From Patescibacteria group bacterium (GTDB lineage: Bacteria; Patescibacteriota; Patescibacteriia; SG8-24; DYFX01), in the NCBI GenBank assembly GCA_041659045.1, contig JBAZZB010000001.1, positions 518,234-582,233 of the forward strand: a stretch of 64,000 nt of DNA. Reading direction: 5' to 3'. This document shows, piece by piece, positions 8,325 through 47,843 of the stretch (its first letter is position 1; the number at the start of each line of letters is the position of its first letter). The notes beneath the pieces were generated by a model. It searched no databases. It was not told where the DNA came from and saw only the letters and a list, made by a program, of their open reading frames with translations. The position numbers and the translations under genes were made by a program.

Positions 8325-8711
8325 TTGTCCCAGAAAACGCTGAAAATCGTCTCGATCGTTCTCGGCATCGTTTCTCTCTATGCCCTGCAGACAGGCTACT
8401 TCCTGATCGGAGGCATCGCCTTGGCGGCCAACGGCGTACTCGTAGCGGTTTCGCCCCAGAAGGTCTGGATGCGTATCACGGGCGTCCTCGTGATGGTCTA
8501 CGGCCTCTACATCGTCGCGGCCGTTCTCGGACTGTTCGTCTCCGGACTCCTCGCCTTCATCGATCCGCAGATCGCGCTCTACGTCGGCTGCTTCCTCTTG
8601 GTCGTCGGCTTGCAGATCGTGCGCCGGGCACCGAAGCACCGCAAGATCGGACTGCTCATCATGGCCATCGGCGCGATCCTCGTCGCCTACGGCTACGGCT
8701 TCCTCGGCTGA
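8325..8711 (+). CDS. Small hypothetical membrane protein (4 predicted TM helices)
   Basis: Hydrophobic 128-aa ORF. GGAGGTG RBS 7 nt upstream of a TTG start. Confidence 0.5.
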   Translation: MSQKTLKIVSIVLGIVSLYALQTGYFLIGGIALAANGVLVAVSPQKVWMRITGVLVMVYGLYIVAAVLGLFVSGLLAFIDPQIALYVGCFLLVVGLQIVRRAPKHRKIGLLIMAIGAILVAYGYGFLG

Positions 8712-8748
8712 CCTCACGGTCAGTTTTTTTCTTTACCAAAGACGATGC

Positions 8749-9315
8749 CTAGAAAGGCATCGTCAGGTTGATCGGATTGGGTTTTGCCGTCGGGATGTTC
8801 CAACTCACTTTGACCGCTTTCTTCGTGGTCGCACGGTCGAAATAGAAGATCTCTCCGTGCGCGCGACCGTAGTCGTAGACTTCTTTCGTGACTTTCACGT
8901 CCTGAAGACAATAGTCTCGCAGCTTGTCGAATTCTCCCTTGCGAAAGTACTCGAGCGCTTGAAGGCCGCTCCCGCTCTTGCCGATACCGAGCGTTGCGTG
9001 CGCAACAGAGTCCAACTTCAATCGGAAACCAAGGTTGGCCGTAATAACCTCGAGCAGATCCAAGCTGGGGAACGTAAGGAAATCGCCGGGATAATAACTG
9101 TTCATCACCGGGTAATCGAACCCTTTCGTGTTGTAGCCGATGATACGATCGGCGCGCTCGAGTCGCGGCCACAAGTTCGGCAGCTCGTGTTCGAGGTAGC
9201 TCGCGTATTCGTCTGTTTCGTAGTAGTAGACGCCGATCAGCGTGATCTTCGGCATGACGCCGCCCACGCCAATCAAGCCATCGGTCTCAATATCAAGTAC
9301 GACTTCCTTGGACAT
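8749..9315 (-). CDS. DnaQ-like 3'-5' exonuclease (DEDDy type, RNase H-like fold)
   Basis: Exo I LDIETDGL, Exo II YNTKGFDYPVM and Exo III YCLQD (Y-x3-D) motifs. Resembles PolB/YprB-type stand-alone exonuclease domains. Confidence 0.65.
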   Translation of the reverse strand: MSKEVVLDIETDGLIGVGGVMPKITLIGVYYYETDEYASYLEHELPNLWPRLERADRIIGYNTKGFDYPVMNSYYPGDFLTFPSLDLLEVITANLGFRLKLDSVAHATLGIGKSGSGLQALEYFRKGEFDKLRDYCLQDVKVTKEVYDYGRAHGEIFYFDRATTKKAVKVSWNIPTAKPNPINLTMPF

Positions 9316-9369
9316 ACGGTACAGCCAGTCGGTGTGGATAATTCCAAAAGATGCGGACAGTATAGCAGA

Positions 9370-10809
9370 TCAGTTTTTCTTACGTTTCCAGGAAATCGTC
9401 TGGTACTGATCGGTCGTCAGTGGGAAGCTCGGCGGCGGGCCGTACAAAAGGTTTCCATCGTAAATAATGTTACGCGTCTGATACCCCGTACCGTCCGTGT
9501 AGGCGTAGCCGTAACGTTCGTACGTACCGAGCATGCCGTAGAGCGTAATCGTGCTTCGTACGTGGTACGGCGAGCAGCGATTCTGCATCCAGGTGGGCGG
9601 TCGGTAGTAGTAGCGGCCGATGCGGCCGTTCTGCGCGACGAGCGCCGCATCAATACGCAGATCATCCGCACTGTGCAGTCCGGCGTTGATATTATCCTGC
9701 GCAACGAGTGCAATGACATCCTGCCCGTCGTAGTTCGTGTACAACAAGTCCTCGTTCACCGTGATACTCATGCGCTGCGAAGGGTTATCCGGAAAGCGCG
9801 CTGCCGCGACCGTCACGCGGGCGGTATTGATCTGACCCTCGACCCACGTATTATCTTCAAGAAAGATAATGCCGTTATTCGGCAACGCATAGTTCGCCAA
9901 AAACGTTTGCGTGTTGATACTCCACGTGCCCCAGTCCGTCTGACCAACGACGGACGTGCAGCCGTTCGGAACAGGGACAAGCGAGTTCACGCGATAGAGA
10001 TCGAACGTATCATCGGTTTTTAAGACGACGCGATATCCAAGACTGCCGGAAGCGGCGAAATATCTGCCGTCCGCCTGCGCGTCGGTTTTCATTGTCGCCA
10101 AATTGCCGGTCAAACCCGCAAAATCAATGGCAGGTACGCCAACCGAACGACCTGCCTCAAAGACATCAAGACGCGATGGAATAGCCGTCGGAGGGAGCGG
10201 ATCGGTCGGCGTAAGATGCGTATGCACCGCGTGCTCGTCTCCTCCGGAATGATCCGCATCGTTGTAGACAACTGCGGCGCTCGTCACGGTATTGTGCGCC
10301 AAACCGTCAAAATGAATACCACCGTTCGAATGAATCGGACCGAACACTTCCGTACCTTCACCGAAACGCATCGCATCGTTAGCCACGACGCTGAACTTGG
10401 CCAAGGACGGCTTACCCATCTTTACTTCAACAATTTCCTTCACGCCCGTCGCGGCGTCAATGCGTCCCGTTGAGGTGATCGTAACGACCGTAGAGCCGGA
10501 CGGCGGAGGTACAATTTCCAGCGAAAAATTTCCAACAACGTCGCCGGAGGCGTTCTTAAACGAGTGGACGTACGGTCCGGAAACACCGGTCCCGTCTTGG
10601 TAGTCTTCCGGCGCGTGCGCGAGATGCCAACGGTAATACTCGATGCCCGCCTCCGCGACCTGCACCGCCAGCTGACGATGCTGCGACGCGCGACCGGCCT
10701 TCAACATAATGAAGGTCCACTGCACGATGCCCGTCAAAACCGCAACACCGATGCCGGTGAATACCAGCGTCTGAACCAGCGCTTGCCCAGTTGGAATGCG
10801 TCGTTTCAT
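9370..10809 (-). CDS. Pilus-associated protein with N-terminal TM helix (PilX/TadG-like minor pilin candidate)
   Basis: N-terminal hydrophobic helix after a short basic leader (MKRRIPTGQALVQTLVFTGIGVAVLTG). Large extracellular domain. 4-nt overlap with the upstream pseudopilin gene. No canonical G|FTLxE motif. Confidence 0.4.
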   Translation of the reverse strand: MKRRIPTGQALVQTLVFTGIGVAVLTGIVQWTFIMLKAGRASQHRQLAVQVAEAGIEYYRWHLAHAPEDYQDGTGVSGPYVHSFKNASGDVVGNFSLEIVPPPSGSTVVTITSTGRIDAATGVKEIVEVKMGKPSLAKFSVVANDAMRFGEGTEVFGPIHSNGGIHFDGLAHNTVTSAAVVYNDADHSGGDEHAVHTHLTPTDPLPPTAIPSRLDVFEAGRSVGVPAIDFAGLTGNLATMKTDAQADGRYFAASGSLGYRVVLKTDDTFDLYRVNSLVPVPNGCTSVVGQTDWGTWSINTQTFLANYALPNNGIIFLEDNTWVEGQINTARVTVAAARFPDNPSQRMSITVNEDLLYTNYDGQDVIALVAQDNINAGLHSADDLRIDAALVAQNGRIGRYYYRPPTWMQNRCSPYHVRSTITLYGMLGTYERYGYAYTDGTGYQTRNIIYDGNLLYGPPPSFPLTTDQYQTISWKRKKN

Positions 10810-11414
10810 TGGTTGTCTTTCAAATTGCGGAGTGAAATCTGGGTCGTCACTTCGACGGGACCTGGCGGACGACTCGCGTTTCGATCAACACCGATCACAA
10901 TCTTAATCATGCGCACCATGCTCGTGCTCACCGGAGACGGCAGCGGTGCTGTTGAAGAAGCGGTGCCCGTGTACGAGCTATCGTAGTACTGAAAGATACT
11001 CGTGGCACTCGTGACAACATTCTGTATCTGATCGATAACCGTTTCGTTCCCCGCAACGTAGGTAAACGGCGCCCCCGTCGGCTCAATGACACCCTTTTGG
11101 ATTTTGGTTCCGGAAAGGAAATATCGTACGCGCTCGACGACTCCGTCGTCGTCGATATCACTGTAAAACGTCAACGTGTTCGTTGCCGCCGTAAGGATCG
11201 GGAACGCCCCCGTTTCCGCCGGCGACGCCGATCGAAGTTCGTGCGACCAAATGCTCAAGACTTTTAGCAAATCCGCTTGAGCAGAAAGACCATCGTACGT
11301 TGTTGTGTTAAACGATAAGACGTTCTTCGCCAACGACCAGCCGCCAGTAATCACGATAACCGTGATACTGGTCGCAATGAGCGCTTCAAGCAGTGTAAAA
11401 GCTGGTCTTCGCAT
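10806..11414 (-). CDS. Prepilin-type N-terminal cleavage/methylation domain protein (pseudopilin-like)
   Basis: MRRPAFTLLEALIATSITVIVI: class III signal with FTLLE and Glu+5. ATG at 11412-11414. The upstream ORF-track extension is rejected because it overlaps the preceding gene. Confidence 0.65.
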   Translation of the reverse strand: MRRPAFTLLEALIATSITVIVITGGWSLAKNVLSFNTTTYDGLSAQADLLKVLSIWSHELRSASPAETGAFPILTAATNTLTFYSDIDDDGVVERVRYFLSGTKIQKGVIEPTGAPFTYVAGNETVIDQIQNVVTSATSIFQYYDSSYTGTASSTAPLPSPVSTSMVRMIKIVIGVDRNASRPPGPVEVTTQISLRNLKDNQ

Positions 11415-11415
11415 A

Positions 11416-13197
11416 TCAGTTTGGAAGCAGCAAAATTTCTTTTTGCTGCCAGTTGCTGTCCATGTCAACCGTCCCGACGTAATCCTGGTAACCGGCGCGC
11501 GATGCCATAACGTCATACGTGCCGGCTCCCAGGTTCGTGAACAAAACCTGACCGGGCGGCGTACAGGCCGATGTGTAGGTAAAACTTACGTCTGAGACAT
11601 TCGGCGTCGAGCTAGCATCTTCCGTAGAAAGAAACGCCTTGTACCGCATATAGCGGTTTCCGCTGTGGCTCGCGTGAATATTTGTGTTCGATGCCGCGTA
11701 ATACGTGGAAGACGTGCCGTCCGGACCGGTAAAAAGCCACGTGGCGTTGTCGTTATTGCTTGCGAGCTGAAATCTGAGGCTGTTTACGCCCGCTGCTGGA
11801 GGCTGATCGTTCGGCAACCATTGCATCTGGTAGAAGTTGCTGGTTGATCCCGTGTCAAAACTCGACGACTCAAGTTCGCCCGCGGCAACATAGCCGCTAC
11901 CCGGATCCTTCAAATGAAGGTCGCCGTTGGGATTCTGCGTCTCGAGGAAACCATCACTCGAAAAATACGCTGTCGGGTCGATAAAATCGGTTTGTCCGCT
12001 CGTACCCGACCAATCCGTCTGACGCATGAAGCCTCGGTTCGTGATGAGCGTCACGTCCGTGCCACCTTGCACCAACTGCACGGTCGTATCGGTTAACGGC
12101 AATTGCGTTGAAGCATCTTTTACGGTCACGAGCACACTGCGTGGCGCTTTCGCACTGACGATCAGCTGGAAATTTTGGTTGGTGTTCGGAGCAAGTGCGA
12201 GCGGCAGAAGCGGCACGGCACCGGCCAGATCGTAGCCAGCGTCAGTCAAAGACGCCTGATAGCTGTCCCACTCAAGCGTCGGCAGCGTCAACAATCCGGT
12301 TCCGTCCGTGGAAAAGGTGTTGGAGTACTTCAGTTGATCCGGCGTTGTGCCGTCGAGTTTTGAACCGACAAGCGAAAAATCAATGTTAGGAACCGGCGTG
12401 CAGGTATCAGTAACACTCGCAACATTCAGAGCGCTAACGCGATCAATCGCGAAACTCATCGCGGTCACCGATTGAAGCGCGACCGTTCCGTGCGGCTTGG
12501 CCGGATTCACGATCACGCTGTTTGGTGCATACGTTCGATCGGTTGAATAGCCGTCCTTCGTCACCGTCACGTAATACTGGTTGATACCCGGCGGCACGTC
12601 GACAAGCTGCAACAGGCCGGCCGCGTTGGTCACATCGTTGATCGTAAAAGACGGCGTCGCCGAGGCGTTTGTGACTGTGACGTTCGCGTCAGAAACCGGT
12701 TGCCCGTTAGCGTCAAGCGCTTGAATGAAGAGCGCGCCGTTCGTTGAAGATGTTTCAAGACTTTTCGGAGCAATCGTCGTCGTGAACGTCGTGGGAGAAT
12801 ACCCGATGCACCCATCGCAACTTACGACGAGTTCATACAGTTTGTAGTCGGCTGGTGACGTGTCGTTTGGCGAGCCTCCAAGCGTTCCATCAAAGATATC
12901 ATCAACATTACGAACCGTGCTCGTCAGTAAAAATACAATGCCGCTGCGAGTAACCGTCTGCTGATATGGGATTTTTCCAGGGGGAAGACCGCCGAGAATA
13001 CCGACGTTCACGTAGCTCATGTTTCTCGCGAATTCAAACTGTTCATTGGCCACGGCGGCGGCCATGACCTGAATGCGAGAAAGGCGTACCGCACGGTACG
13101 CGGCCGTCATCGCTTGATACAACGCCACCGTCACAAGCAAAAACACGGCCGTGCCGACGATCGTTTCAACAAGCGTAATGCCTCGGGGATGTCTCAT
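11416..13197 (-). CDS. Large prepilin-type N-terminal domain protein (593 aa pseudopilin-like)
   Basis: MRHPRGITLVETIVGTAVFLLV (G|ITLVE) followed by a long S/T/N-rich beta-rich domain. 4-nt overlap with the ATPase-like gene. Confidence 0.65.
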   Translation of the reverse strand: MRHPRGITLVETIVGTAVFLLVTVALYQAMTAAYRAVRLSRIQVMAAAVANEQFEFARNMSYVNVGILGGLPPGKIPYQQTVTRSGIVFLLTSTVRNVDDIFDGTLGGSPNDTSPADYKLYELVVSCDGCIGYSPTTFTTTIAPKSLETSSTNGALFIQALDANGQPVSDANVTVTNASATPSFTINDVTNAAGLLQLVDVPPGINQYYVTVTKDGYSTDRTYAPNSVIVNPAKPHGTVALQSVTAMSFAIDRVSALNVASVTDTCTPVPNIDFSLVGSKLDGTTPDQLKYSNTFSTDGTGLLTLPTLEWDSYQASLTDAGYDLAGAVPLLPLALAPNTNQNFQLIVSAKAPRSVLVTVKDASTQLPLTDTTVQLVQGGTDVTLITNRGFMRQTDWSGTSGQTDFIDPTAYFSSDGFLETQNPNGDLHLKDPGSGYVAAGELESSSFDTGSTSNFYQMQWLPNDQPPAAGVNSLRFQLASNNDNATWLFTGPDGTSSTYYAASNTNIHASHSGNRYMRYKAFLSTEDASSTPNVSDVSFTYTSACTPPGQVLFTNLGAGTYDVMASRAGYQDYVGTVDMDSNWQQKEILLLPN

Positions 13198-14321
13198 AGA
13201 CGCATGAGTTCTTCCGGCGCGATCGCACCGGAGAGGACCTTCCGCACCCCATCATCAAGCAGGGTTGACGGACGACGTTCGGGCACGAGCAAGTCTCTCC
13301 ATTCGAATACGGCGAGCTGTCCACGATGCCCCGTGTACCGGCAGCGGGCACATTTCGTGCCGCGCTCAAACGTTTGCGTTCTGTTCTTTTCAAACACGCG
13401 ACGCACGAGCGCGCGCGGCCAAATGACCGCCGCCTCTTCTCCTGTCATGGTATCGCGTCGACGGCAATCGGGACAGACGCGCCGCACCAAACGCTGAAGC
13501 AGCACCCCCGACAGGACGCGCGCTAGCATTTTCGGCTCAACACGCAGTTCAAGAAGCCTGTTCAAAGCGCCAGAAAGAGTTTTACCTTCAACGACAACGA
13601 TCACAAGCCGGTGTTCCGCTGCGGAAACCGCAAGAGCGGCGGACGTTTCCTCGCGCAACGAACCAAGACCAATAACGCTTGCGCCGCGCGCGATAGCCGC
13701 TCGCAGCAAAGACGAGGTTGTACGCCCAGCAACAGGGTCGACCATTTCCTGATCAACGCCATGCAGCTCGGCGAGCGACACCGTCTCAATCAGAGAGGTC
13801 TGCCTACGAAAAACATCGACTTCTTCTAAAAGCGCGTAGAGCGTCGTTGTGAGACCTGATCGTCGCGGTCCCGCGAGCAGCAGGAGTCCGGATGTTTTTT
13901 TCAAGCAACGCTCAAGCCCACCCCGTTGCACAGAGGAAAGTCCCAGATCCGCCAAACTCGGTCGTGGCGTACGGAAACGTACGACGACTTTTTCTCCTTC
14001 AAGTACCGGAACGACGGAGAGACGACTCTCCACCTCAACGCTGTCAACGACGCGTCGTAACGGATTTTCCTGGCAAGAAAAATCGGCGTCTTCGCGCAAA
14101 CGCGCGAGTATCTTCAGATGACGCACGAATCGCACGTGCGACTCCCTCGCTTGATGGAACCATTCGTGCAGCAAACCGTCGCGCCGAACACGCACGACCG
14201 CATCCTTCGCTGAAGGCTCTAAAATGAGTTCGGTGGCTCCGGAATCCGCAGCGTCACGCAAAAGCAGATCGACGGCATTGTCGATCTCAGTTTCTTTCAA
14301 AATGTGATGTGGTATCGGCAC
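13194..14321 (-). CDS. PilB/GspE-family ATPase homolog with degenerate catalytic motifs (predicted pseudo-ATPase)
   Basis: Walker A reads GPRRSGLTTTLYA (canonical GPTGSGKTTTLY); Lys to Leu, codon CTC at ~13852-13854. Asp-box and Walker B are degenerate (VIGLGSLRE instead of IMVGEIRD). Tetracysteine Zn motif CPDC...CARC is retained. N-terminal GspE N domains are absent. Confidence 0.7.
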   Translation of the reverse strand: MPIPHHILKETEIDNAVDLLLRDAADSGATELILEPSAKDAVVRVRRDGLLHEWFHQARESHVRFVRHLKILARLREDADFSCQENPLRRVVDSVEVESRLSVVPVLEGEKVVVRFRTPRPSLADLGLSSVQRGGLERCLKKTSGLLLLAGPRRSGLTTTLYALLEEVDVFRRQTSLIETVSLAELHGVDQEMVDPVAGRTTSSLLRAAIARGASVIGLGSLREETSAALAVSAAEHRLVIVVVEGKTLSGALNRLLELRVEPKMLARVLSGVLLQRLVRRVCPDCRRRDTMTGEEAAVIWPRALVRRVFEKNRTQTFERGTKCARCRYTGHRGQLAVFEWRDLLVPERRPSTLLDDGVRKVLSGAIAPEELMRL

Positions 14322-14353
14322 AGGTCCTCCTTCCCGCGCGCCCGGTTATGGGC

Positions 14354-14728
14354 TTACGGTGCTCCGATCCGTTCCGTAACTTTTTTAAGAACGTCGTCCA
14401 ACGAGTAGTTCGCCTTCACAAGGAAATCGAACGTACCGAGCGCCATTGCTTCAGCGACCTTGTCGCCGGAGCTGAGGTTGGTAAGAATGATAACCGGCAC
14501 GGGACGCAGGCGATCATCGTCTTTCATTTGCCGCAAAACGGAAATACCGTCGATCTTCGGCATAATCAGATCGAGCAAGACAAGGTCGGGCACGACGGTT
14601 TTCAAAATCGTCACCGCTTCCTCACCATCAGAAGCTGCTTGCACGTCGTATCCGCCATGCTCGAGCTTGCTCTTGAGCGCCCGCTGCATGCTCGGCTCGT
14701 CCTCGACAATCAATACAGTTTTAGCCAT
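14354..14728 (-). CDS. Single-domain response regulator (CheY-like receiver)
   Basis: LIVEDE, phospho-acceptor Asp in LLDLIMP, and conserved T (ILT) and K (LVK) motifs. ATG at 14726-14728. Confidence 0.85.
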   Translation of the reverse strand: MAKTVLIVEDEPSMQRALKSKLEHGGYDVQAASDGEEAVTILKTVVPDLVLLDLIMPKIDGISVLRQMKDDDRLRPVPVIILTNLSSGDKVAEAMALGTFDFLVKANYSLDDVLKKVTERIGAP

Positions 14729-14788
14729 GGGAAAACGCAAGACTTATGCCGACATCGTACCTGAAACTGAGCTTCGGAACAAGCAGTC

Positions 14789-15928
14789 TTAGGTGGAAGC
14801 GCGGCGCGGTAACGAGACTGTAAAGATCGATCCCCCGCCATCTGCCGGTCGATAATGTAGAGAACCATCATGAGCCGCGACAATGAACTTGGCGATAAAG
14901 AGCCCGAGCCCTGAAGCGTTCGGATTCATCTCGATTGCCCTCTTCGAGCGATAAAACCGTTCAAACAGGCGCTCTCGATCTGAAGTCGTCATGCCGATGC
15001 CGGAATCGCGGAACTCAATTTCAACAGAATCCTTCGTCGAGTGGATTTCGATGCCAACCCGTCCGCCGTCCGGTGTGTATTTCACGGCATTGTCAAGCAA
15101 TCGGATAAACACTTTTTCCATGCGCGTCGGGTCGATAAAGAGCGGCGTCAGATTTTTGGGCGGATCGAAAACTAACGTCTGCCTACGCAGAGAAACGCTG
15201 CGAGAAAAATCGCGTACAACCTTACCGACAATGGCTGATACGTCCACCGACACTTTTTCCAAACGGAACGCTTGCTGCTCGATATCAACCGCCAGAAGCA
15301 TGTCGTCAATAATCGATAAGCTGACGATGAGGCTCTTATAGGCGTCGCGCAACAACTCTGCCGCCTCCTTCGGGATCTCGCCGGCGTCACCGGAAAGCAG
15401 CACGTCCAGATTCCAACGCATGACATTCATCGGCGTGCGCAGTTGATGCGAAACGACGGTCATGAATTTTGATTTCAGTTCATCAGCGTTGCGCTGACCG
15501 CTGTAGCGAATTTTGAGCTGCATGATTTCGCGCTCGTTTGTGATATCGCGAATCACCCACAAGCGACCGAGATAGGCGCCATCCCTGTATACGGGATTAC
15601 TTTTCACCTCAAGGACCGTGCGATCAGGTGCTGTAATCTCGACATCACGCAAAAATTGCGCGTCTCTATCCTGAAAAGGATGCGTCACCGTTTCGTGATA
15701 CGACAAGATATCAGAAAACTTTACGGACCACTCCGGTTCAAAGTCCTTCAACGTACGCCCAACAAGCTTTGATGGGTCAAAACCGAACATCTCTCCGAAC
15801 GCCCGGCTCACGACCTGTAGCGTGCCGTTTTCAAGCACGAACAGACAGGCATTCGGCGTGGCATCCAAAAGCTCTGGCAGCAAATTCACGCCGCCGAGCA
15901 CCTGCGAAATGGTCGCTTTGGTTTTCAT
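14789..15928 (-). CDS. Cytoplasmic sensor histidine kinase (PAS-HisKA-HATPase_c)
   Basis: PAS-like N-terminal domain. H-box SHQLRTPMN. N, G1 (DSGIGM) and G2 (GLGLFIA) boxes. No TM segment. ATG at 15926-15928. Confidence 0.85.
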   Translation of the reverse strand: MKTKATISQVLGGVNLLPELLDATPNACLFVLENGTLQVVSRAFGEMFGFDPSKLVGRTLKDFEPEWSVKFSDILSYHETVTHPFQDRDAQFLRDVEITAPDRTVLEVKSNPVYRDGAYLGRLWVIRDITNEREIMQLKIRYSGQRNADELKSKFMTVVSHQLRTPMNVMRWNLDVLLSGDAGEIPKEAAELLRDAYKSLIVSLSIIDDMLLAVDIEQQAFRLEKVSVDVSAIVGKVVRDFSRSVSLRRQTLVFDPPKNLTPLFIDPTRMEKVFIRLLDNAVKYTPDGGRVGIEIHSTKDSVEIEFRDSGIGMTTSDRERLFERFYRSKRAIEMNPNASGLGLFIAKFIVAAHDGSLHYRPADGGGSIFTVSLPRRAST

Positions 15929-40985: not shown

Positions 40986-43900
40986 TCATGAGGCAGTTTT
41001 GAGTTCAATATCGTCAGCAATGAAGACGGGCTCTTTCTCGTGGGTGAAATCAATCTCTTTCGTGCGTGCCGCTTGGTATCCCGCGCGATCAGCCGTCAGG
41101 AAATAGCGGTTCTGACCGGCCAGGAAGGCGTAGCGTCCGCGTGCATCGGTCACCTGGGCTTCAAGCACTTTCTTGTACGCGGATTCGACAATACGAACGA
41201 CCACTTGCTTCACGGGCTTCTTCTGCTCATCGGAAACCGTTCCCCAGCTCTTAGGACGCCGCCCTCTGGCCAGGCGCATGAAGAGAAGCATGAAGGCGAG
41301 CTGTGTCATGAGTGCAATCACCTGCTCCCAACGAGGCGTTGCGGCATAGCTTGCAAGCGCAAGTCCGGGACCGATCGACGCGACGGCCCATTGCACGCGC
41401 AAGCGCGAGGAAGCCGCGAGAATGTCGATGTCCGTGCGCGTTTCACCCACAGGTTCGAGCGGCACGTTTTTGGCGATCATACCTTCCGGAGTTTCGATCG
41501 GGCCACCAAGGTGCAGGTCAGAGAAGGGGCCGTCGGCCACGCCGCTGATCGTTCGGTTCGGAGGAAAGGCAAAACCGGGCTTCTGTACTTCAAGCAGGTA
41601 GCTGCCGGGCTGTGGCAAGAAAAGATAGCGACCATACCGATCGGTGACGCGCGTTGAAACCGTTTTTTGCGTGACAGGGTCGACAAGACGGACGACAGCA
41701 AGATCCACCGGCAGCTTCGTGCCGACGTTATAGATGGTGCCGTAAGCCTTGCGACGGCGACGATCGAGCAGCGCGAGCGGTTGCGTAAAGAGGAACATCG
41801 CGTATCGCGCGTAGCCGGCAAAGCCCACAGCCGAAGTCGTCGCGACTGCGACCGCCGCAGTTGTAGCTGGGGTCACGACAACGTCGTTCGTTGTTTGCGC
41901 CACTGCGCTTCCGCGAATGGCTTTCATATTGTCGCGTACCGATCGCGCGATAGCGCCGATGACAGGCGTGTTCTGTGTCGCCTCCGCGAGACGATCAAGA
42001 ATCGGCGTTGCCGTAACGGCGTTCAATGGTCGCGCGATCCATTCAAGCAACGTCAGTCTTGTCTCTGTTCCGCTCGTCGTCCCGCTTCCAGACGTCGGTA
42101 CCGTTGGCGGTGTCGTTCCGGTCGTCGGACGTTCGGGATCGGTTCCGACAGGTGTCGGTTGCTCGGTTGTCGGTGGCACCGTAGGCTCTGACGATACTGG
42201 AGGTGCCGGTGTCGTTCCTGGTGTGGGGGCTGTACTTGGCTCAACAGGTGCCGTCGGCTGAGCAACTACCGGAGGAACGGTCGGTACCGTCGGTGGCAGC
42301 GTAACGATCGGTTCCACAGGCGTTACGGGAAGTTGTACAACATCCGTCGTCTGTTCAGAAATCGTCGTCGAGAGCCCATCCGCGGTGATGACGGCGCGAT
42401 TAAAAAGCGACCTCGCGCCGGGTAACACCCGCACGTGCACGCTGACATACCGGCGCATGCTTGCGGCAAGAGAACCAAGATTGTATGTCGCGGTACGCGT
42501 CAACGAATCAAAAGCGGCGTCATCTGTATCGGCGAGGTCCGTCAGAATCACACCATCAATCGACAAAGATGATCCAACGTATGACGTGCCGGGTGGAATT
42601 GTTTCTGCTACCACAACATTTCGCGCGGTCTGGCCGCCGACGTTCGACACGTCAATACGATAGGTAACGATATCACCAGTCTTCGGTTCGGGCGTACCGC
42701 TCGAAAATTCCAAAGAAGACACGTTCACGCCGACGCGCACCTCAGCCAGTACAGCAGCATCCTCTGGCACAGTCGTAGGGGGTACAACGGGCGGCGTCGA
42801 TGTTGTTGAGCCCGGCGCTCCTGATCCGCTTTGCGCTATTGTGAACGAAGCATCGCTCACGTCCGTCGCCAAAATCGTGTCACCTCCAGCGAGGGCTTCA
42901 GCGCGAATGCGCGCGGAATCAGCGGCCACGCTCGGCACCATCCAGGCGTAGACGCCCGCGGAAGGACTCACATTCGAAGCAATCACCGCGTACGTACTCC
43001 CGTTATCTACGGAGTACGAGAGTCGGACGTTCTGCACCTGAATACCCTGCGTCGTGAAAAATACGTTATATGTCGATCCACCCGCGAGCAGTTCGCTGCC
43101 GTTCGGCTGGCCAACCACAATGGAAGGCGTCGGGTTACCACCGCCTCCGCCTCCTCCCCCACCACCTCCGCCTGAAGCCGTAATCGAAAAGTCTGCGTTC
43201 GCGGTATCGCTCGCAAGTGTTACGTTGTTCGCGTCTTGTGCCTCGATTTTGATGCGCGCTGTGGTCGTCGTGATGTTGTTGACCGTCCAGGAATACGGCG
43301 ATGCTGCGTCGGATGCAGTAACAAGCGTCGGGAACGTGGAGCCCGAGTCCGTAGAAAGCGTGATGCGGTAGTGATCAACCAAACCAGCATTCGTCCACGT
43401 GATCGACGAAGAATCGCCGCCCGTCAAACTTCCTCCGCCATTCGGTGCCGTCACGGTTACTGTCGCCGCACCGTCAGAATCGGCGATCATTTGCACGCGT
43501 GTTTGTGAAACCGTGTTGACGGACTGGAAAGCCGTCACAATACCAGCGTCACCATTGGAGACAGCCGTCGGAATATCTTCAGCAAAACCGGCGCGAGCCG
43601 CAACAACGATTCCGTTTGCGGTCCACATCGCCGTGCCAGTTGAGTTCAGACGTTGTGCGTACACGTCGCCACCAGCCTCCGTTCTTTCATCCTTCCAAGC
43701 CGCTACAACACCGGCGCTATTGTCTGTTGCAATACTGAATTGCGCCCCTTGGTTATCAGCAGCATTGCTCACGACCTCGCCGTTCGCTGTCCACTGCGCG
43801 ACGCCGGAAGCATCGAGTCGTTGCGCGTACAGATCGCTCGTGACGCCTCCGCGCATATCTTTCCACACCACGATCGACCCGGTATCCGAAGCGATGACTT

Positions 43901-46277
43901 TCGGCACGGTTTGATTATCTGCTGCAGTCACAACATCAACTCCGCCCGCAGTCCATTGCACGTCGCCGGCTTCGTTATACATTTGTGCCTTGACGTTGGC
44001 GTTTCCAAGACTGCCGGGATCCGCGCTCCAGGCGACGACGACTCCGCCCGAGACGGCCGTAAGAGCTGTTTCGATGGCGGTGTTTTCTGTCGTGATGACT
44101 TCGCCGTACGTTGTCCAACCGGAAACAACCGCTCCGTTTGCCGCTGCTAGGCGCACGACGCGTAAGTCGGGATCGGTCACGTCGTTATCGATGTGCTGCC
44201 AAGCGAGATACGCGCCGCTTGCGCCGTCAGAAGCGATCGCGCCATATTCATGAGCGACCGTACCGGAAGGCAGCGGATCAGATGCTTCAACTCCTGTTGC
44301 GCCCCACGGAACACCGGCCGCAGATGTCACGCGCACGCCATACATCCTGTTATTCACCTCATACATCACAATGGCGCCACCCGCTCCGTCCGTGACGGTA
44401 CCCCAGACATCGACCGTCGAGCCGGACGGTGAAATACTCAATCCTGATGCCGACCAGCCGCCGACCACGACCCCCGAAGAATCAAAACGTTTGATTTTCA
44501 AAACCTCGGAACCCATATAATCCTTCCAGATGACGTATACGCCACCTGAACCATCGCCTAACAAGCCAAGCACCTCTTGCCCGATACCGATCGCAATCGC
44601 CACGCCGCTCGCTGTCCACTGTGAGACACCTGAGGAGTTCACTTTTTGCAAAAAAACTCTCGTTCCGTTATGGCGGTTATCATTCCAAGCAAGAAAATAA
44701 TTTCCTGAACCATCGGCCGCCACGCGCGGCACGAGCTGCTCTGCCGTAACGGAGCCTGGTCCATCTGGAAGCGTGAAGCCGCGCGTACCGTTAAATTGCG
44801 GAGCGCCAGTCGCGTCATCAAGTAACTGGCCAACCGCGTCATCCTCAAAGCTCGCTTGGATCTGTGCCGCAATCACGAAGTCGCCTGCCGTTGTCGTGAC
44901 AGCATACGGCATCGTAATCGGGAAAAAGTTCGTGGCCGTATCCGCATCAATCGCGAGCACGCCACCGGACGTCCAAGCCACGGTACCGTCAGAATTGACG
45001 CGCTGGGCAATCACGTCGCGTGTGCTTGCACCCGAATATTGGCGCATAATGGCGATGAGCACGTCACCCGAACCATCACCCGCCGTCACCGCGATCGTAG
45101 GATAATCTTCACGATCGGCAGTACTCGTCAGCGCCAAACCAGAGCCGGAAAACTGGGCGACACCAGAGCTATTGAGTTTTTGTACGTACAAATACGGGTT
45201 GGCGTAGTAGAAGACCATCGCGTCGGTTCCACTCATCGCAACCTTGGGATTTGCATTGGCGTTTGCCGTGCTGACCTGGACACCATTCGCAGTCCAAACC
45301 TGGTCACCGGCACTATCGATCTGTTGGGCGTAAACACCGTTAGCGCCTGAACGACTATCTTCCCAAACCGCGACAAGGCCTCCGGAACCGTCCGGTACGG
45401 CCTGCGTCATGCGATCCTGTGCGTCGGCAGCCGACGTGATTGCTTTTCCGTTCGCTGTCCACTGCACCGTACCAGCGCTGTTAATACGTTGCGCGTATAA
45501 ATCTTCATCCGCGCCGCGGAGATCCTCCCACGCGATGATCGCGCCGCCGGAGCCGTCCGTAACGATGAGCGGATCGCGCTGGTTATTGGCGGCCGCGCTA
45601 ATGACCACACCGGTCGCAGTCCACTGTTTGGCGCCTAAACCATCCAAGCGCTGCGCGCGCACGTCGCCGCCGATCACGTACGCAACGATAATACCGTCGG
45701 AGCCGTCAGGAAGAGCGACCCCTGACGTTTCGGAACTCGCGCCAACATCAGCAACCGCCAACCCGCCCGCCGCCCATTGCACGGCGCCGGAAGAATCGAG
45801 TCTTTGCGCGTAAATGTCGTTGGCACCATTCGAAATACCGTAGAGCACAATGACGCCGCCTGAGGTATCTGCGACTACTCGCACGCGCTGATCACCGAGA
45901 CCACTTGCTCCATCGTAGACCGTGATGCCTCCGCCCCATTGCGCCGCGCCGGTGTCATCAACTTTTTGAGCGTAGATGCCGCCCCCGACCGCGTTCGTGA
46001 ACACGAAGACGCTATACCCATCGCTCGTGCGAACGACAGGGCCACTGGTTGATTGTTCAAAAATAACTGACTCTTGGTCGCCCGCAAGGAAACCGTTTGT
46101 GGCAGCAGCAGCAACAACACCGTTTGCCGTCCAACTTGCAGAGCCGCTCGCCAAAGCCGTTGAGACAACGTTACCGAAAACAATCGCCGTGATCAGAACC
46201 GTCACGGACGCAAAAACAAACCGAGCGCGCGCCCAAGCTTTTACCGCAATCCAAAGACGGTTTATTCGATACTTCAC
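40986..46277 (-). CDS. Giant cell-surface protein A (~1760 aa)
   Basis: Architecture from N- to C-terminus: signal peptide; ~13 tandem ~50-aa W/YAQR beta-propeller-like repeats; DUF11-like domain; two ~90-aa Ig-like (Kre9/KNH-like) domains; Gly12 tract; Pro/Thr-rich linker; C-terminal TM plus prealbumin/CarboxypepD_reg-like anchor module shared with gene B. Start uncertain (GTG ~46277); the ORF-track start at 46556 would overlap the upstream gene. Confidence 0.7.
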   Translation of the reverse strand: MKYRINRLWIAVKAWARARFVFASVTVLITAIVFGNVVSTALASGSASWTANGVVAAAATNGFLAGDQESVIFEQSTSGPVVRTSDGYSVFVFTNAVGGGIYAQKVDDTGAAQWGGGITVYDGASGLGDQRVRVVADTSGGVIVLYGISNGANDIYAQRLDSSGAVQWAAGGLAVADVGASSETSGVALPDGSDGIIVAYVIGGDVRAQRLDGLGAKQWTATGVVISAAANNQRDPLIVTDGSGGAIIAWEDLRGADEDLYAQRINSAGTVQWTANGKAITSAADAQDRMTQAVPDGSGGLVAVWEDSRSGANGVYAQQIDSAGDQVWTANGVQVSTANANANPKVAMSGTDAMVFYYANPYLYVQKLNSSGVAQFSGSGLALTSTADREDYPTIAVTAGDGSGDVLIAIMRQYSGASTRDVIAQRVNSDGTVAWTSGGVLAIDADTATNFFPITMPYAVTTTAGDFVIAAQIQASFEDDAVGQLLDDATGAPQFNGTRGFTLPDGPGSVTAEQLVPRVAADGSGNYFLAWNDNRHNGTRVFLQKVNSSGVSQWTASGVAIAIGIGQEVLGLLGDGSGGVYVIWKDYMGSEVLKIKRFDSSGVVVGGWSASGLSISPSGSTVDVWGTVTDGAGGAIVMYEVNNRMYGVRVTSAAGVPWGATGVEASDPLPSGTVAHEYGAIASDGASGAYLAWQHIDNDVTDPDLRVVRLAAANGAVVSGWTTYGEVITTENTAIETALTAVSGGVVVAWSADPGSLGNANVKAQMYNEAGDVQWTAGGVDVVTAADNQTVPKVIASDTGSIVVWKDMRGGVTSDLYAQRLDASGVAQWTANGEVVSNAADNQGAQFSIATDNSAGVVAAWKDERTEAGGDVYAQRLNSTGTAMWTANGIVVAARAGFAEDIPTAVSNGDAGIVTAFQSVNTVSQTRVQMIADSDGAATVTVTAPNGGGSLTGGDSSSITWTNAGLVDHYRITLSTDSGSTFPTLVTASDAASPYSWTVNNITTTTARIKIEAQDANNVTLASDTANADFSITASGGGGGGGGGGGGNPTPSIVVGQPNGSELLAGGSTYNVFFTTQGIQVQNVRLSYSVDNGSTYAVIASNVSPSAGVYAWMVPSVAADSARIRAEALAGGDTILATDVSDASFTIAQSGSGAPGSTTSTPPVVPPTTVPEDAAVLAEVRVGVNVSSLEFSSGTPEPKTGDIVTYRIDVSNVGGQTARNVVVAETIPPGTSYVGSSLSIDGVILTDLADTDDAAFDSLTRTATYNLGSLAASMRRYVSVHVRVLPGARSLFNRAVITADGLSTTISEQTTDVVQLPVTPVEPIVTLPPTVPTVPPVVAQPTAPVEPSTAPTPGTTPAPPVSSEPTVPPTTEQPTPVGTDPERPTTGTTPPTVPTSGSGTTSGTETRLTLLEWIARPLNAVTATPILDRLAEATQNTPVIGAIARSVRDNMKAIRGSAVAQTTNDVVVTPATTAAVAVATTSAVGFAGYARYAMFLFTQPLALLDRRRRKAYGTIYNVGTKLPVDLAVVRLVDPVTQKTVSTRVTDRYGRYLFLPQPGSYLLEVQKPGFAFPPNRTISGVADGPFSDLHLGGPIETPEGMIAKNVPLEPVGETRTDIDILAASSRLRVQWAVASIGPGLALASYAATPRWEQVIALMTQLAFMLLFMRLARGRRPKSWGTVSDEQKKPVKQVVVRIVESAYKKVLEAQVTDARGRYAFLAGQNRYFLTADRAGYQAARTKEIDFTHEKEPVFIADDIELKTAS
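43137..43172 (-). repeat. GGN trinucleotide tract encoding 12 consecutive Gly
   Basis: Protein GGGGGGGGGGGG between an Ig-like domain and the next domain; DNA is imperfect GGN repeats. Confidence 0.7.
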
Positions 46278-46347
46278 GCGTGTATACAGAGGTCTCTTCA
46301 CAGCATGCAGTGTACCACTTTTAGGCAAATCCTTCTTGTTCGAACCT

Positions 46348-47823
46348 CTACACCGACACCACCGTTTTAAGGGTGATATCTCGAGCAATAAAAGCCGGAT
46401 CCTTTGAACGGCTGAAATCCACCGTTTCTGTCCTGGCTGCCTGATGCCCCGCCCCCTCAGCCGTGACGAAGTATCGATTCTGTCCGACCAAGAAGGCATA
46501 GCGACCCGAAGCGTCCGTGACCTGAGCTTCCAACACCTTATTGTAGGCATCTTCAATCACGCGCACGACGGCTTGTCGCACGGGCTGCCCTTGCGCGTCG
46601 CGTACGACGCCCCACCCCTTCGGCTTTCGCTTGTTGGCGATGCGAGAGAAAATAACGGTCAGCGCCAGCTGAAGCGCCAGAGCACCTACCTGTTCCCAAC
46701 GCGGCGTAACGACATAACTTGCCACCGCGAAACCGGGGCCAAATGCCGTAAACGCCCATTGCAAACGGAGACGCCCTGCCGCGGCGATAATTTTGGAATT
46801 GGTACGCGAGTCCTCTTTCGGTTCAAGTGGGATGTTTTTCGCGATAACACCATCCGAAGCAACGACGCTTCCCCCAACATGCAGGTCCGCGTACGGACCA
46901 TCGGCCACACCAGAGATCGTACGCACTGGAGGGAAGACGAATCCGGACTTCTGCACTTCGATCTGGTACGCACCGGGAGGCGCGAGGAAGAGATACCGTC
47001 CGAGACGGTCCGTGACGCGCGTCGCGATTACTTTTTGTCCCGTCGCATCAAGAAGCCGAACCGTCGCAAGATCAACAGGGAGTTTGGTCCCGACGTTGTA
47101 GACAGTGCCGTATGCTTTTCTACGGCGACGATCGAGCAGAGCAAGCGGCTGCGTCACAAGGAACATCGCGTAACTGGCGAAACCCGTGAAACCAACTGCG
47201 GACGTTGTCGCGACAGCAGCCGCCCCAGCGACGGCCGGTGTCAGTACGACTGTGTTGGTTGTTTGCACCGTTTCATTCGTACGCAAAGCCTTCACGACTT
47301 CGCGTGTCGCCTGAACAACCTCACGCACAATAGGAATATTTTTTGTGACGTTTGCCGCGATGTCCAGAAGCGGCGTCTCTTCAAGAGGTGCTTCTTCGCG
47401 CACAAACCACTCAATCAACGAAAACGAAGCGATCTCCTGAGCCGGTGACGGCACGGAAATTTCGCCTTGCGGAGACGGCTCGACAGATCCGCCTCCAGAC
47501 GATCCACTTGCGCCGCTTCCTTGCCCACCACCACTTGATGCTGGTGGTTCCGTATCTATAGACGTAACCGGACGTTCCGGAGTCGGGCGCGGGGTCGGTT
47601 TCGTTACCGGCGGTTCTTCTTCCGCTTCATCGATCGGTGTTTCTGTCGAGGCTGGAGGCTCAACGACCGGTTCTTCTGGCGTTACCGGTTCAGATGGAGT
47701 TTCAGGAGGCGTTTCAATAGGCGGCGTTGGTTCGACAGGCACTGTTGGGTCCGGAGTTTCAACGGGCGGTTCGGTTGGTGGCAGCACCGGCGGCTCAACA
47801 CCTGTACCAACAATCGTAAACAC
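46348..47823 (-). CDS. C-terminal portion of giant surface protein B
   Basis: Pro-rich linker, TM and CarboxypepD_reg-like anchor module. Reading frame is separated from the upstream portion by a frameshift. Homologous residue-for-residue to the C-terminus of protein A. No signal peptide and no RBS of its own; its reading frame continues upstream to ~47925. Confidence 0.7.
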   Translation of the reverse strand: MFTIVGTGVEPPVLPPTEPPVETPDPTVPVEPTPPIETPPETPSEPVTPEEPVVEPPASTETPIDEAEEEPPVTKPTPRPTPERPVTSIDTEPPASSGGGQGSGASGSSGGGSVEPSPQGEISVPSPAQEIASFSLIEWFVREEAPLEETPLLDIAANVTKNIPIVREVVQATREVVKALRTNETVQTTNTVVLTPAVAGAAAVATTSAVGFTGFASYAMFLVTQPLALLDRRRRKAYGTVYNVGTKLPVDLATVRLLDATGQKVIATRVTDRLGRYLFLAPPGAYQIEVQKSGFVFPPVRTISGVADGPYADLHVGGSVVASDGVIAKNIPLEPKEDSRTNSKIIAAAGRLRLQWAFTAFGPGFAVASYVVTPRWEQVGALALQLALTVIFSRIANKRKPKGWGVVRDAQGQPVRQAVVRVIEDAYNKVLEAQVTDASGRYAFLVGQNRYFVTAEGAGHQAARTETVDFSRSKDPAFIARDITLKTVVSV

Positions 47824-47843
47824 ACTGTCACTTACGTCCGTTG

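Follow-up and report, generated by a model that had tools for sequence, protein, structure and literature searches.

In a 64-kb window of the genome of a Patescibacteria group bacterium (64,000 nucleotides, nt; NCBI GenBank assembly GCA_041659045.1, contig JBAZZB010000001.1, positions 518,234 to 582,233), a block of seven genes brings together a two-component pair, a degenerate homolog of the type IV pilus (T4P) ATPase PilB, three prepilin-type proteins and a 3'-5' exonuclease-like protein (Table 1). All coordinates given here are positions in this window. Open reading frame (ORF) listing together with Pfam and NCBIfam scans, by which the genes were called, places all seven on the minus strand where a first-pass annotation had put them; the block proteins are deposited as MFA5853997-MFA5854001. 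That annotation had read the seven as one co-directional unit in which the four pilus-like genes each overlap by 4 nt. Such overlaps are present at the ATPase/593-aa junction (ATGA at 13194-13197) and at the 202-aa/479-aa junction (ATGA at 10806-10809), but the 593-aa and 202-aa genes are separated by a 1-nt gap, with the stop codon of the former ending at 11416 and the start codon of the latter at 11414. Downstream, 54 nt lie between the 479-aa gene and the exonuclease gene. At the other end, the kinase gene starts only 8 nt past an upstream glycosidase-like gene, so that gene spacing is no marker of where a unit begins. Nor is co-directionality distinctive, since from ~72 to 26352 essentially all likely genes lie on the minus strand, with a 128-aa ORF at 8325-8711 the sole exception.

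Table 1. Genes and other features of the block, in order of transcription (positions in the 64-kb window)
Feature	Position	Strand	Basis
PAS histidine kinase, 379 aa from MKTKAT	14789-15928	-	Pfam PAS + HisKA + HATPase_c
Receiver-only CheY-like response regulator, 124 aa	14354-14728	-	Pfam Response_reg, 92 bits, whole-protein coverage
PilB/GspE homolog (pseudo-ATPase), 375 aa, N2D + CTD	13194-14321	-	Pfam T2SSE (PF00437), E = 1e-42
593-aa modular prepilin	11416-13197	-	N_methyl motif + CarboxypepD_reg domain
202-aa small prepilin, middle of the triplet	10806-11414	-	N_methyl motif
479-aa ComZ/PilX-like cap pilin (candidate)	9370-10809	-	no Pfam match; AF2 model, Foldseek
Promoter-like spacer before the exonuclease gene	9316-9369	-	TGCTATACT extended -10-like, then GGAATTATCCACACC
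DEDDy-type 3'-5' exonuclease-like protein, 188 aa	8749-9315	-	PF13482 RNase_H_2, 2e-11; PF10108 DNA_pol_B_exo2, 1e-8
Hairpin + T-run between the convergent exonuclease and 128-aa membrane-protein genes	8706-8725	.

The three pilin genes, whose products we denote by their lengths as 593, 202 and 479, each encode a protein with a single N-terminal hydrophobic segment and a leader of the class III signal peptide type. The predicted processing site of 593 is RG↓ITLVE, with glutamate at +5, and that of 202 is MRRPA↓FTLLE, in which Glu5 is likewise present; in 479 the site is G↓QALVQ, with glutamine at +5 and no Glu5, as in cap subunits. Distant orthologs of 202 carry a canonical G↓FS(V/I)IE and pass the Pfam N_methyl model at 3e-6 to 4e-5. 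Leaders, N_methyl motifs and single hydrophobic segments agree in predicting three prepilin-type proteins, as the first-pass annotation had supposed. In Pfam, NCBIfam and PDB sequence searches, 202 otherwise gives N-terminal pilin-helix matches only, and 479 no match at all.

An AlphaFold2 (AF2) model of 479, built from a 79-sequence alignment (pLDDT 94.8, pTM 0.89), has a helix at residues 7-65, a four-stranded sheet at 80-132 and a final strand at 470-477, while the short β-strands running from ~141 to ~450 are read as an inserted β-solenoid. The earlier description of this third protein as PilX-like fits both the missing Glu5 and the modeled pilin fold with its β-solenoid insert. Upon searching the PDB with this model, Foldseek places ComZ (6qvi) first by a wide margin (probability 1.0, E = 1.7e-11), and ice-binding proteins come next. 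ComZ binds DNA, is argued to cap the pilus or sit at its tip, and has itself been reported to resemble ice-binding proteins (PMC6561018), the same secondary resemblance that is seen for 479. The Thermus thermophilus ComZ-PilA2 tip (6qvi; PMC6561018) further shares with 479 the lack of a canonical Glu5 and the presence of small pilin genes alongside. On the other hand, 479 and ComZ are only 11-13% identical, superimpose with a TM-score of about 0.3 and show no sequence-level match. The partners of 479, a 593-aa stalked pilin and a 202-aa pilin, also differ from those of ComZ. A further difference from Thermus is that the patescibacterial envelope probably has no outer membrane or secretin. As to the gene itself, the deposited call for the 479 homolog of one close relative (L004:13414-14853) is 445 aa long and begins at 13516; alignment to the window protein starts at 13414, a start that would restore 479 aa and a 4-nt overlap with the preceding pilin gene.

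For 593, the model comprises a helix at 9-58 and strands at 79-142, that is, an α-β pilin fold, and the models show what appears to be a GspI-like pilin head carrying an immunoglobulin-like (Ig-like) stalk of transthyretin/CnaB-type β-sandwich domains; the stalk resembles the Ig-like domains of Gram-positive adhesins and pilins. The 202-aa protein, always encoded behind a 593 homolog, presumably occupies the GspJ/PilW or PilA2 position, so that the gene order would mirror gspI-J-K. Taken together, the set reads as a T4P tip (priming) complex cassette equivalent to GspI-GspJ-GspK (3ci0) or PilV-PilW-PilX. As in those systems, three prepilins are co-encoded in the order I-like, small, K-like, the last subunit is without Glu5, and the set is encoded between PilC and PilM at most loci. 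It differs from them in having no GspH/FimU-like fourth member, in the roughly 450 extra residues of β-sandwich domains borne by its I-like subunit as compared with GspI, and in the nature of the insert in its K-like subunit, which is a β-solenoid in 479 but α-helical in GspK.

The cassette extends far beyond this genome. The 593-aa protein has more than 1648 homologs, of which the best 120 all align end to end at 51-75% identity, and 479 has homologs in 683 representative clusters (clustering at 50% identity). A metagenome scan provided 80 further triplet loci, which were examined with a tblastn panel. Across these 80 loci cassette identity is 46-81%, and homologs of 202 and 479 lie directly downstream of the 593 homolog at every locus whose downstream sequence was long enough (51/51). 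Immediately upstream of the 593 homolog one finds PilC at 35 of 55 loci and PilB-PilC at 26 of 43, and triplet-adjacent PilB ORFs, counting the 80 loci and L011, carry the canonical GPTGSGKTT in 30 cases out of 31. At L011 the order is PilB-PilC-triplet-PilM and then three small ORFs at the place of PilN/PilO, while at L009 and L010 the triplet is detached from the machinery. The 593/202/479 set is an independent, invariant cassette that is widespread in Patescibacteria.

A useful comparison is with the T4P-1 and T4P-2 systems of Saccharibacteria TM7x, which likewise have several pilus loci per small genome, pilin-only loci apart from machinery loci, large accessory-domain minor pilins proposed as tips, and pilins with elevated Gly/Ala/Ser/Thr (PMC11623550); these four residues make up 33-37% of the triplet proteins versus 24-26% of cytoplasmic proteins. 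In that work pilins were reported to be poorly conserved across Patescibacteria (PMC11623550), in contrast to the conservation of the present cassette over its 80 loci. The TM7x PilB1 and PilB2 proteins, moreover, keep their Walker boxes, and that work describes no pseudo-ATPase (PMC11623550).

What such a tip would bind is less clear-cut. By analogy with ComZ, DNA is the most likely ligand, and the competence idea raised in the first-pass annotation gains to this extent, the best PDB match of 479 being a DNA-binding tip pilin. It may instead be that the cassette is a host-adhesion tip and not a DNA receptor, its β-solenoid and Ig-like stalk binding the host envelope in an epibiotic lifestyle, and this we consider a serious possibility, though the less likely one. 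Saccharibacteria T4P mediate host binding through large accessory-domain minor pilins (PMC11623550), cyanobacterial β-solenoid PilX proteins include an adhesion/motility subfamily (bioRxiv 10.64898/2026.02.12.705559), and the adhesin-like character of the 593 stalk points the same way. The best structural match of 479 is, however, specifically the competence pilin ComZ, and the tip proteins are very well conserved (50-60% in many lineages), as one would sooner expect for a ligand that is universal, like DNA, than for host surfaces, which are diverse; neither of these points is decisive.

We turn now to the PilB/GspE homolog that precedes the cassette in the window. Its N2D + CTD core is homologous to those of EpsE (1p9r) and Thermus PilF (5oiu) (E = 4e-38 to 2e-29) and shares their tetracysteine Zn site; in a PDB phmmer search, residues 14-341 align with residues 34-357 of 1p9r at 3.6e-38. 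As compared with these enzymes, it is without the N1/MshEN domain, the Walker A lysine, the Asp box, the catalytic glutamate and the His box, and has a C-terminal deletion. A search of 5.8 billion proteins returns this form in only 13 clusters (53-100% identity, about 375 aa), beyond which there is a sharp drop to P0014 (37% identical, 564 aa, MshEN present) and then to ordinary PilB/GspE proteins at ~30%. In the nine members of the 13-cluster clade that were aligned, every loss is found in 9/9. N1/MshEN (PF05157), present in P0014 and other PilBs, is absent; Walker A reads GPRRSG(L/R/C/V)TTT (GPRRSGLTTT in the window), with the lysine replaced; the Asp box, the catalytic glutamate of Walker B and the His box are lost, the window protein having LIETVS in place of IEDPIE, GLGSLRE in place of MVGEVRD and EHRLVIVVVE in place of GHLVLSTLHT; and ~19 residues are deleted at the C-terminus. 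The degeneracy noted in the first pass is a property common to these nine clade members. The four Zn-site cysteines (C283, C286, C324, C327), by contrast with these losses, are invariant in 9/9. The gene starts with GTG, preceded by an AGGAGG ribosome-binding site. (The deposited gene call for one homolog, P0012, is 33 residues short.)

This pseudo-ATPase evolves quickly for its surroundings. It is 57-73% identical to its counterparts in four close relatives versus 75-97% for most neighboring genes, the other low-identity neighbors being a phosphodiesterase (60-61%) and a small membrane ORF (37-49%), and its dN is 2-8 times that of neighboring genes. With dS saturated (0.6-4; two pairs incalculable), omega (dN/dS) can be taken only as a rough, relative measure; so read, it is 0.11-0.36 for the pseudo-ATPase, 0.04-0.08 for the triplet within the clade and 0.02-0.05 for the response regulator. 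The ORFs are intact, and selection on the pseudo-ATPase appears from these sequences to be relaxed yet still purifying. On a 9.75-kb contig bearing the pseudo-ATPase-triplet arrangement (P0005, P0362, P0368; TXI88585/TXI88587, E6Q34_12155-12170), 593 and 479 are at least 90% identical to the window proteins and the pseudo-ATPase only 70%, which again indicates faster drift of the latter. That contig was deposited as 'Burkholderiaceae bacterium', a label that is almost certainly a binning error.

Comparison of genomes allows something of the history of this slot to be read. Close relatives L004 (CP129476.1) and L005 have the gene order of the window, as do, judging by locus tags, the contigs of P0002 and P0005. 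Within the clade, however, synteny extends over the entire 20 kb, from PBP1a, phosphodiesterase, Smr, DUF6938 and the glycosidase-like gene upstream to MgsA, a lipoprotein, PBP2 and a Mur ligase downstream, and shared order among relatives so close carries little weight. More telling are L006 and L008, in which kinase, regulator, pseudo-ATPase and exonuclease follow one another and the pilin genes are absent. In L006 the spacer of ~185 nt after the ATPase gene is homologous to the spacer of ~250 nt that follows the 479 homolog in L004, and the triplet has therefore been cleanly removed from, or inserted at, the slot.

A second arrangement is seen at the P0014 locus (L012/L014, with its tail in L013), which is syntenic with the window on both sides: PBP1a, phosphodiesterase, Smr, DUF6938 and a glycoside hydrolase lie upstream, and the exonuclease (83% identical) and MgsA downstream. 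Here, the slot begins with a histidine kinase (55% identical), a GAF protein, a second kinase and two receiver-only regulators (79%), continues with an active PilB, PilC and ORFs of 155, 1397, 174 and 124 aa, one of which is weakly GspH-like and another of which has an N_methyl motif, and ends with a PilM and three small pilins. That PilM is unusually long, at 698 aa. Within the 1397-aa protein (13366-17559 in L012 = 965-5158 in L014), a C-terminal region of ~130 aa is 34% identical to the C-terminus of 593, which suggests a terminal domain shared across otherwise different minor-pilin sets.

Given synteny on both sides and 37% identity between the two proteins, we infer that the pseudo-ATPase is the positional descendant of an active PilB standing behind a two-component system, and it would thus be a relic of a two-component-linked pilus operon. 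Descent from the PilB that precedes the cassette elsewhere was considered and rejected, for the pseudo-ATPase is 37% identical to the syntenic L012 PilB (P0014) but only 26-30% identical to triplet-adjacent PilBs. A scan of genome contigs with the pseudo-ATPase as query found only three distant GspE loci, at 30-31% identity.

Might the PilB-like gene then be a decaying relic with no remaining function, such that only the pilin cassette and, separately, the two-component system matter? Several of the foregoing observations lend themselves to this view: the gene is among the least conserved of its neighborhood, its catalytic motifs and N-terminal domain are all gone, different residues stand at the position of the Walker A lysine, no more than 13 clusters make up the family, and the remainder of its operon has been deleted. 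We nonetheless think it rather unlikely. In nine aligned lineages that diverge by as much as 51% at the amino-acid level, the reading frame is uninterrupted by stops or frameshifts and keeps a length of about 375 aa; omega is far under 1; many core residues are invariant along with the Zn-binding cysteines; the ribosome-binding site is strong, and the 4-nt overlap that couples the gene to the cassette is conserved; and the gene has been kept even after loss of the triplet in L006 and L008. There is precedent for a role apart from catalysis, in that a Walker A mutant of Myxococcus xanthus PilB still regulates exopolysaccharide production (review PMC11656802).

The two-component genes lie immediately ahead of the pseudo-ATPase. 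The kinase carries the SHQLRTP, DSGIG and GLGL motifs of its class and has no 19-residue window above 1.6 on the Kyte-Doolittle scale, from which we take it to be cytoplasmic. It is 76-78% identical to its orthologs in L004, L005 and L008 and 55% identical to the L012 ortholog that precedes the active PilB. The regulator has the acidic pocket (EDE), the phospho-acceptor (LLDLIMP), and the conserved T (ILT) and K (FLVK), and no output domain was found in Pfam, Response_reg spanning the whole protein. It is the best-conserved gene of the block, at 91-96% identity in the clade and 79% to L012. A kinase paired with a receiver-only regulator that has no DNA-binding output presumably acts on another protein, and in the ancestor that protein would have been PilB.

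The link between signaling genes and a pilus ATPase recurs outside the clade. In addition to L012/L014, a kinase and a receiver-only regulator of 122-123 aa directly precede PilB-PilC-triplet at L052 and L060/61, and at L073 and L078 a kinase and a double-receiver regulator stand between PilB and PilC; in all, 6 of 34 triplet loci have a kinase or regulator within 5.5 kb upstream. These cases support a two-component system, with its receiver-only regulator, being linked to a pilus ATPase beyond this clade, and here the first-pass annotation, which had remarked on a stand-alone receiver beside an ATPase homolog, is borne out in part. The L073/L078 pair, ~1.2-3.9 kb upstream of the 593 homolog, consists of a kinase of 528-530 aa and a two-receiver regulator of 277-325 aa, and represents another mode of incorporating two-component genes in a cassette-type pilus operon. 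Among known systems, PilG/PilH of Pil-Chp and FimX/PilZ-PilB bear a likeness to this locus in that a single-domain receiver is encoded here beside a PilB-family gene, which implies a post-translational rather than a transcriptional output. Comparing genes alone, this locus differs in having no CheA-type kinase, methyl-accepting chemotaxis protein (MCP), PilZ, GGDEF or EAL, and its kinase, unlike that of Pil-Chp, is a simple cytoplasmic PAS HisKA protein.

At the far end of the block, the 188-aa protein has the three motifs (LDIETD, NTKGFD and YCLQD, for Exo I, II and III) that mark it as a predicted DEDDy 3'-5' exonuclease; a PDB phmmer search returned only spurious TPR matches and no sequence relative. 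Its gene follows the pilus slot in each of the close relatives and in L014, but was found at none of the 80 triplet loci (MgsA, its downstream neighbor in the clade, is at 0/80 as well). Orthologs 58-60% identical (L015, L016, Uhrbacteria-like contigs) are instead situated upstream of ribonucleotide reductase, with no adjacent pilus genes. In the window and in L004, L005, L006 and L008, the stretch upstream of the gene, TCTGCTATACTGT ... GGAATTATCCACACC, is conserved irrespective of what lies before it (479 homolog, pseudo-ATPase or spacer), and a hairpin and T-run precede it in L004 and L006, all of which argues for the exonuclease having a promoter of its own. A consensus promoter scan of 8-17 kb did not flag this element; that scan ran near its shuffled background, with 5 promoter-like hits against 4.9 expected and 18 terminator-like hits against 11.5. 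The exonuclease is most likely a flanking neighbor outside the pilus module, and the part of the competence idea that leaned on it is not supported.

Some further features of this region deserve mention. Between pilus slot and exonuclease, L004 (14893-15088) and L006 (1421-1590) have a conserved non-coding element of ~170-190 nt that is absent from the window and from L005; it has a promoter-like start in L006 (TTGACG...TATACA), three predicted stem-loops and a terminal hairpin with T-run, and between these genomes, in which synonymous sites have reached saturation, it is ~85-90% identical. The L006 element has no match in Rfam, and it may be a small RNA gene. The exonucleases of L006 (1564-2226) and L008 (11166-11810) are 76% identical to that of the window, as against 90-93% for L004 and L005, and have an N-terminal loop QNSFADVGGANHDKLK in place of DGLIGVGGVMPK; in both, gene callers extend the ORF upstream over the promoter-like element.

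With these data in hand, one may return to the proposal that the seven genes form a single co-transcribed system, in which the two-component system controls a filament of three pilins helped by the PilB-like protein while the exonuclease processes incoming DNA. The tight packing with two overlaps, the order common to the window, L004, L005 and the P0002 and P0005 contigs, the exonuclease standing behind an intact pilus operon in L014 and L013, and the DNA handling suggested by the ComZ-like fold of 479 could all be cited for it. We find it improbable all the same. The neighborhood comparison by which it could be judged goes against a conserved unit, given an exonuclease-free record at all 80 triplet loci, signaling genes at only 6 of 34, and L006 and L008, which keep the rest of the block without pilins; the shared order is uninformative where the whole 20 kb is syntenic; the exonuclease has its own promoter-like element, with a terminator-like hairpin upstream in L004 and L006, and a ribonucleotide reductase neighbor elsewhere; and a degenerate ATPase cannot power assembly. 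That the block might be an anti-phage defence island or a nuclease-carrying mobile element can hardly be entertained: a nuclease-fold gene does adjoin an NTPase-fold gene, but PADLOC gives only weak domain-level matches, for the regulator and kinase, and none for the ATPase, pilins or exonuclease, the flanks are housekeeping genes syntenic across relatives, GC content (0.53-0.57) is unremarkable and similar to that of the surrounding sequence, and no integrase or transposase occurs among the scanned window ORFs of at least 180 aa, a scan in which repeats were not searched.

The explanation that we favor, and consider moderately probable, is that the block is a composite of three layers, namely a tip cassette, an operon relic and a neighbor gene, rather than one machine. 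In the first layer, prepilin peptidase would cleave 593, 202 and 479; the Glu5-less 479 would cap the filament and present its β-solenoid, with 202 and 593 stacked below it and 593 adding a long Ig-like stalk. No PilC, PilM, PilD or PilT was found in the window by family scans, nor does the block or the window hold a ComG-type or complete type IVa pilus set (active ATPase, PilC/ComGB, major pilin, PilM/N/O), members of which are present in L012/L014 and L011. The tip complex would accordingly need a PilB/PilC/PilM machine, encoded at some other place in the genome, on which to nucleate a filament, and its exposed tip would then bind DNA or, alternatively, a host cell. In the second layer, kinase, regulator and PilB-like gene would be what is left of another pilus operon, with a two-component system at its head, that a sister lineage keeps intact in the same slot and from which, in the lineage of the window, PilC, PilM and the old pilins have gone. 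The dead PilB, under purifying selection and translationally coupled to the cassette, may survive, without catalytic activity, as an adaptor or decoy by which the regulator, once phosphorylated, still acts on pilus assembly. The third layer, the exonuclease, would be a housekeeping gene of DNA metabolism under a promoter of its own, adjacent to the slot and nothing more. On this composite reading, the layout looks non-canonical because an eroded operon is joined to a relocated cassette, and not because it is a new kind of machine.

Several observations weigh against this composite or parts of it. Its distinctive gene order draws little from the clade itself, all close relatives being syntenic throughout, and the 64-kb window has no active PilB and no PilC, PilM or PilD, which leaves the assembly machine to be postulated elsewhere. 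The J position of 202 is assumed. The global TM-score of 479 to ComZ is low (0.30-0.32, at 11-13% identity), DNA binding by ComZ depends on two lysines (PMC6561018), and cyanobacterial PilX proteins, which share the ComZ-like architecture, have β-solenoids that also serve motility and adhesion (bioRxiv 10.64898/2026.02.12.705559). As for the signaling layer, two-component genes accompany only a minority of cassette loci (about 15%), and the identity of those kinases and regulators to the window's (28-44%) is of a generic, domain-level sort. Lastly, the pseudo-ATPase is kept in L006 and L008 where there is no triplet, and its faster evolution is also what would be expected of a slowly dying gene.

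A more ambitious form of this reading takes the cassette to be the extracellular DNA receptor of a patescibacterial competence pilus and the dead PilB to be a pseudo-enzyme regulator of a new type. The receptor may consist of a GspI-like subunit with a stalk, capped by a ComZ-like β-solenoid, and be conserved through much of the radiation; the dead PilB may dock the CheY-like protein in its phosphorylated form and enter mixed rings with active motors or form rings that compete with them. That both halves hold at once is speculative and, in our estimation, unlikely. The kinds of component involved (T4P minor-pilin tip complexes, PilB-family ATPases, two-component systems) are all known. In the literature searched we found no description of a ComZ-like/GspI-like cassette highly conserved across Patescibacteria, of a clade-wide catalytically dead PilB kept behind its two-component system, or of a recurrent pairing of receiver-only regulator and PilB in such operons.

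Two other sets of features lie outside the block. The plus-strand ORF at 8325-8711, convergent with the exonuclease gene, encodes a strongly hydrophobic, multi-pass protein of 128 aa with no family match, found at 37-49% identity in the same place in L004, L005 and L006. The hairpin between the two genes is likely a terminator: on the plus strand it has 8 pairs followed by TTTTTTCT, while the minus-strand hairpin is preceded by an A-run. Rfam finds tRNAs only over the window. Further along, at 40986-52814 on the minus strand, a run of three large ORFs has the look of a cluster for surface proteins or adhesins: one of 1856 aa with DUF11, one of 491 aa whose N-terminus is Pro-rich and which carries CarboxypepD_reg/SdrD-B domains, and one of 1656 aa that is Gly-rich, opens with a signal-peptide-like stretch and has no Pfam match.

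Host attachment and DNA uptake in Patescibacteria depend on pili, and Saccharibacteria pilins have been reported as too divergent to compare, in contrast to a cassette that can be followed at 46-81% identity over 80 environmental loci. With one member having the predicted fold of the only structurally characterized DNA-binding tip pilin, this cassette offers a concrete candidate, open to test, for the receptor by which these uncultivated cells bind DNA or a host. The apparent seven-gene unit would be an accident of operon erosion and synteny, and the locus would record the dismantling of a pilus operon, in the course of which a motor was turned into a conserved, catalytically dead protein behind its signaling pair, a natural experiment on the roles of PilB besides ATP hydrolysis. 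If the joint reading were true, a cytoplasmic PAS signal would gate pilus extension via the dead PilB, and a DNA receptor at the tip would explain DNA capture by nucleotide-auxotrophic cells.

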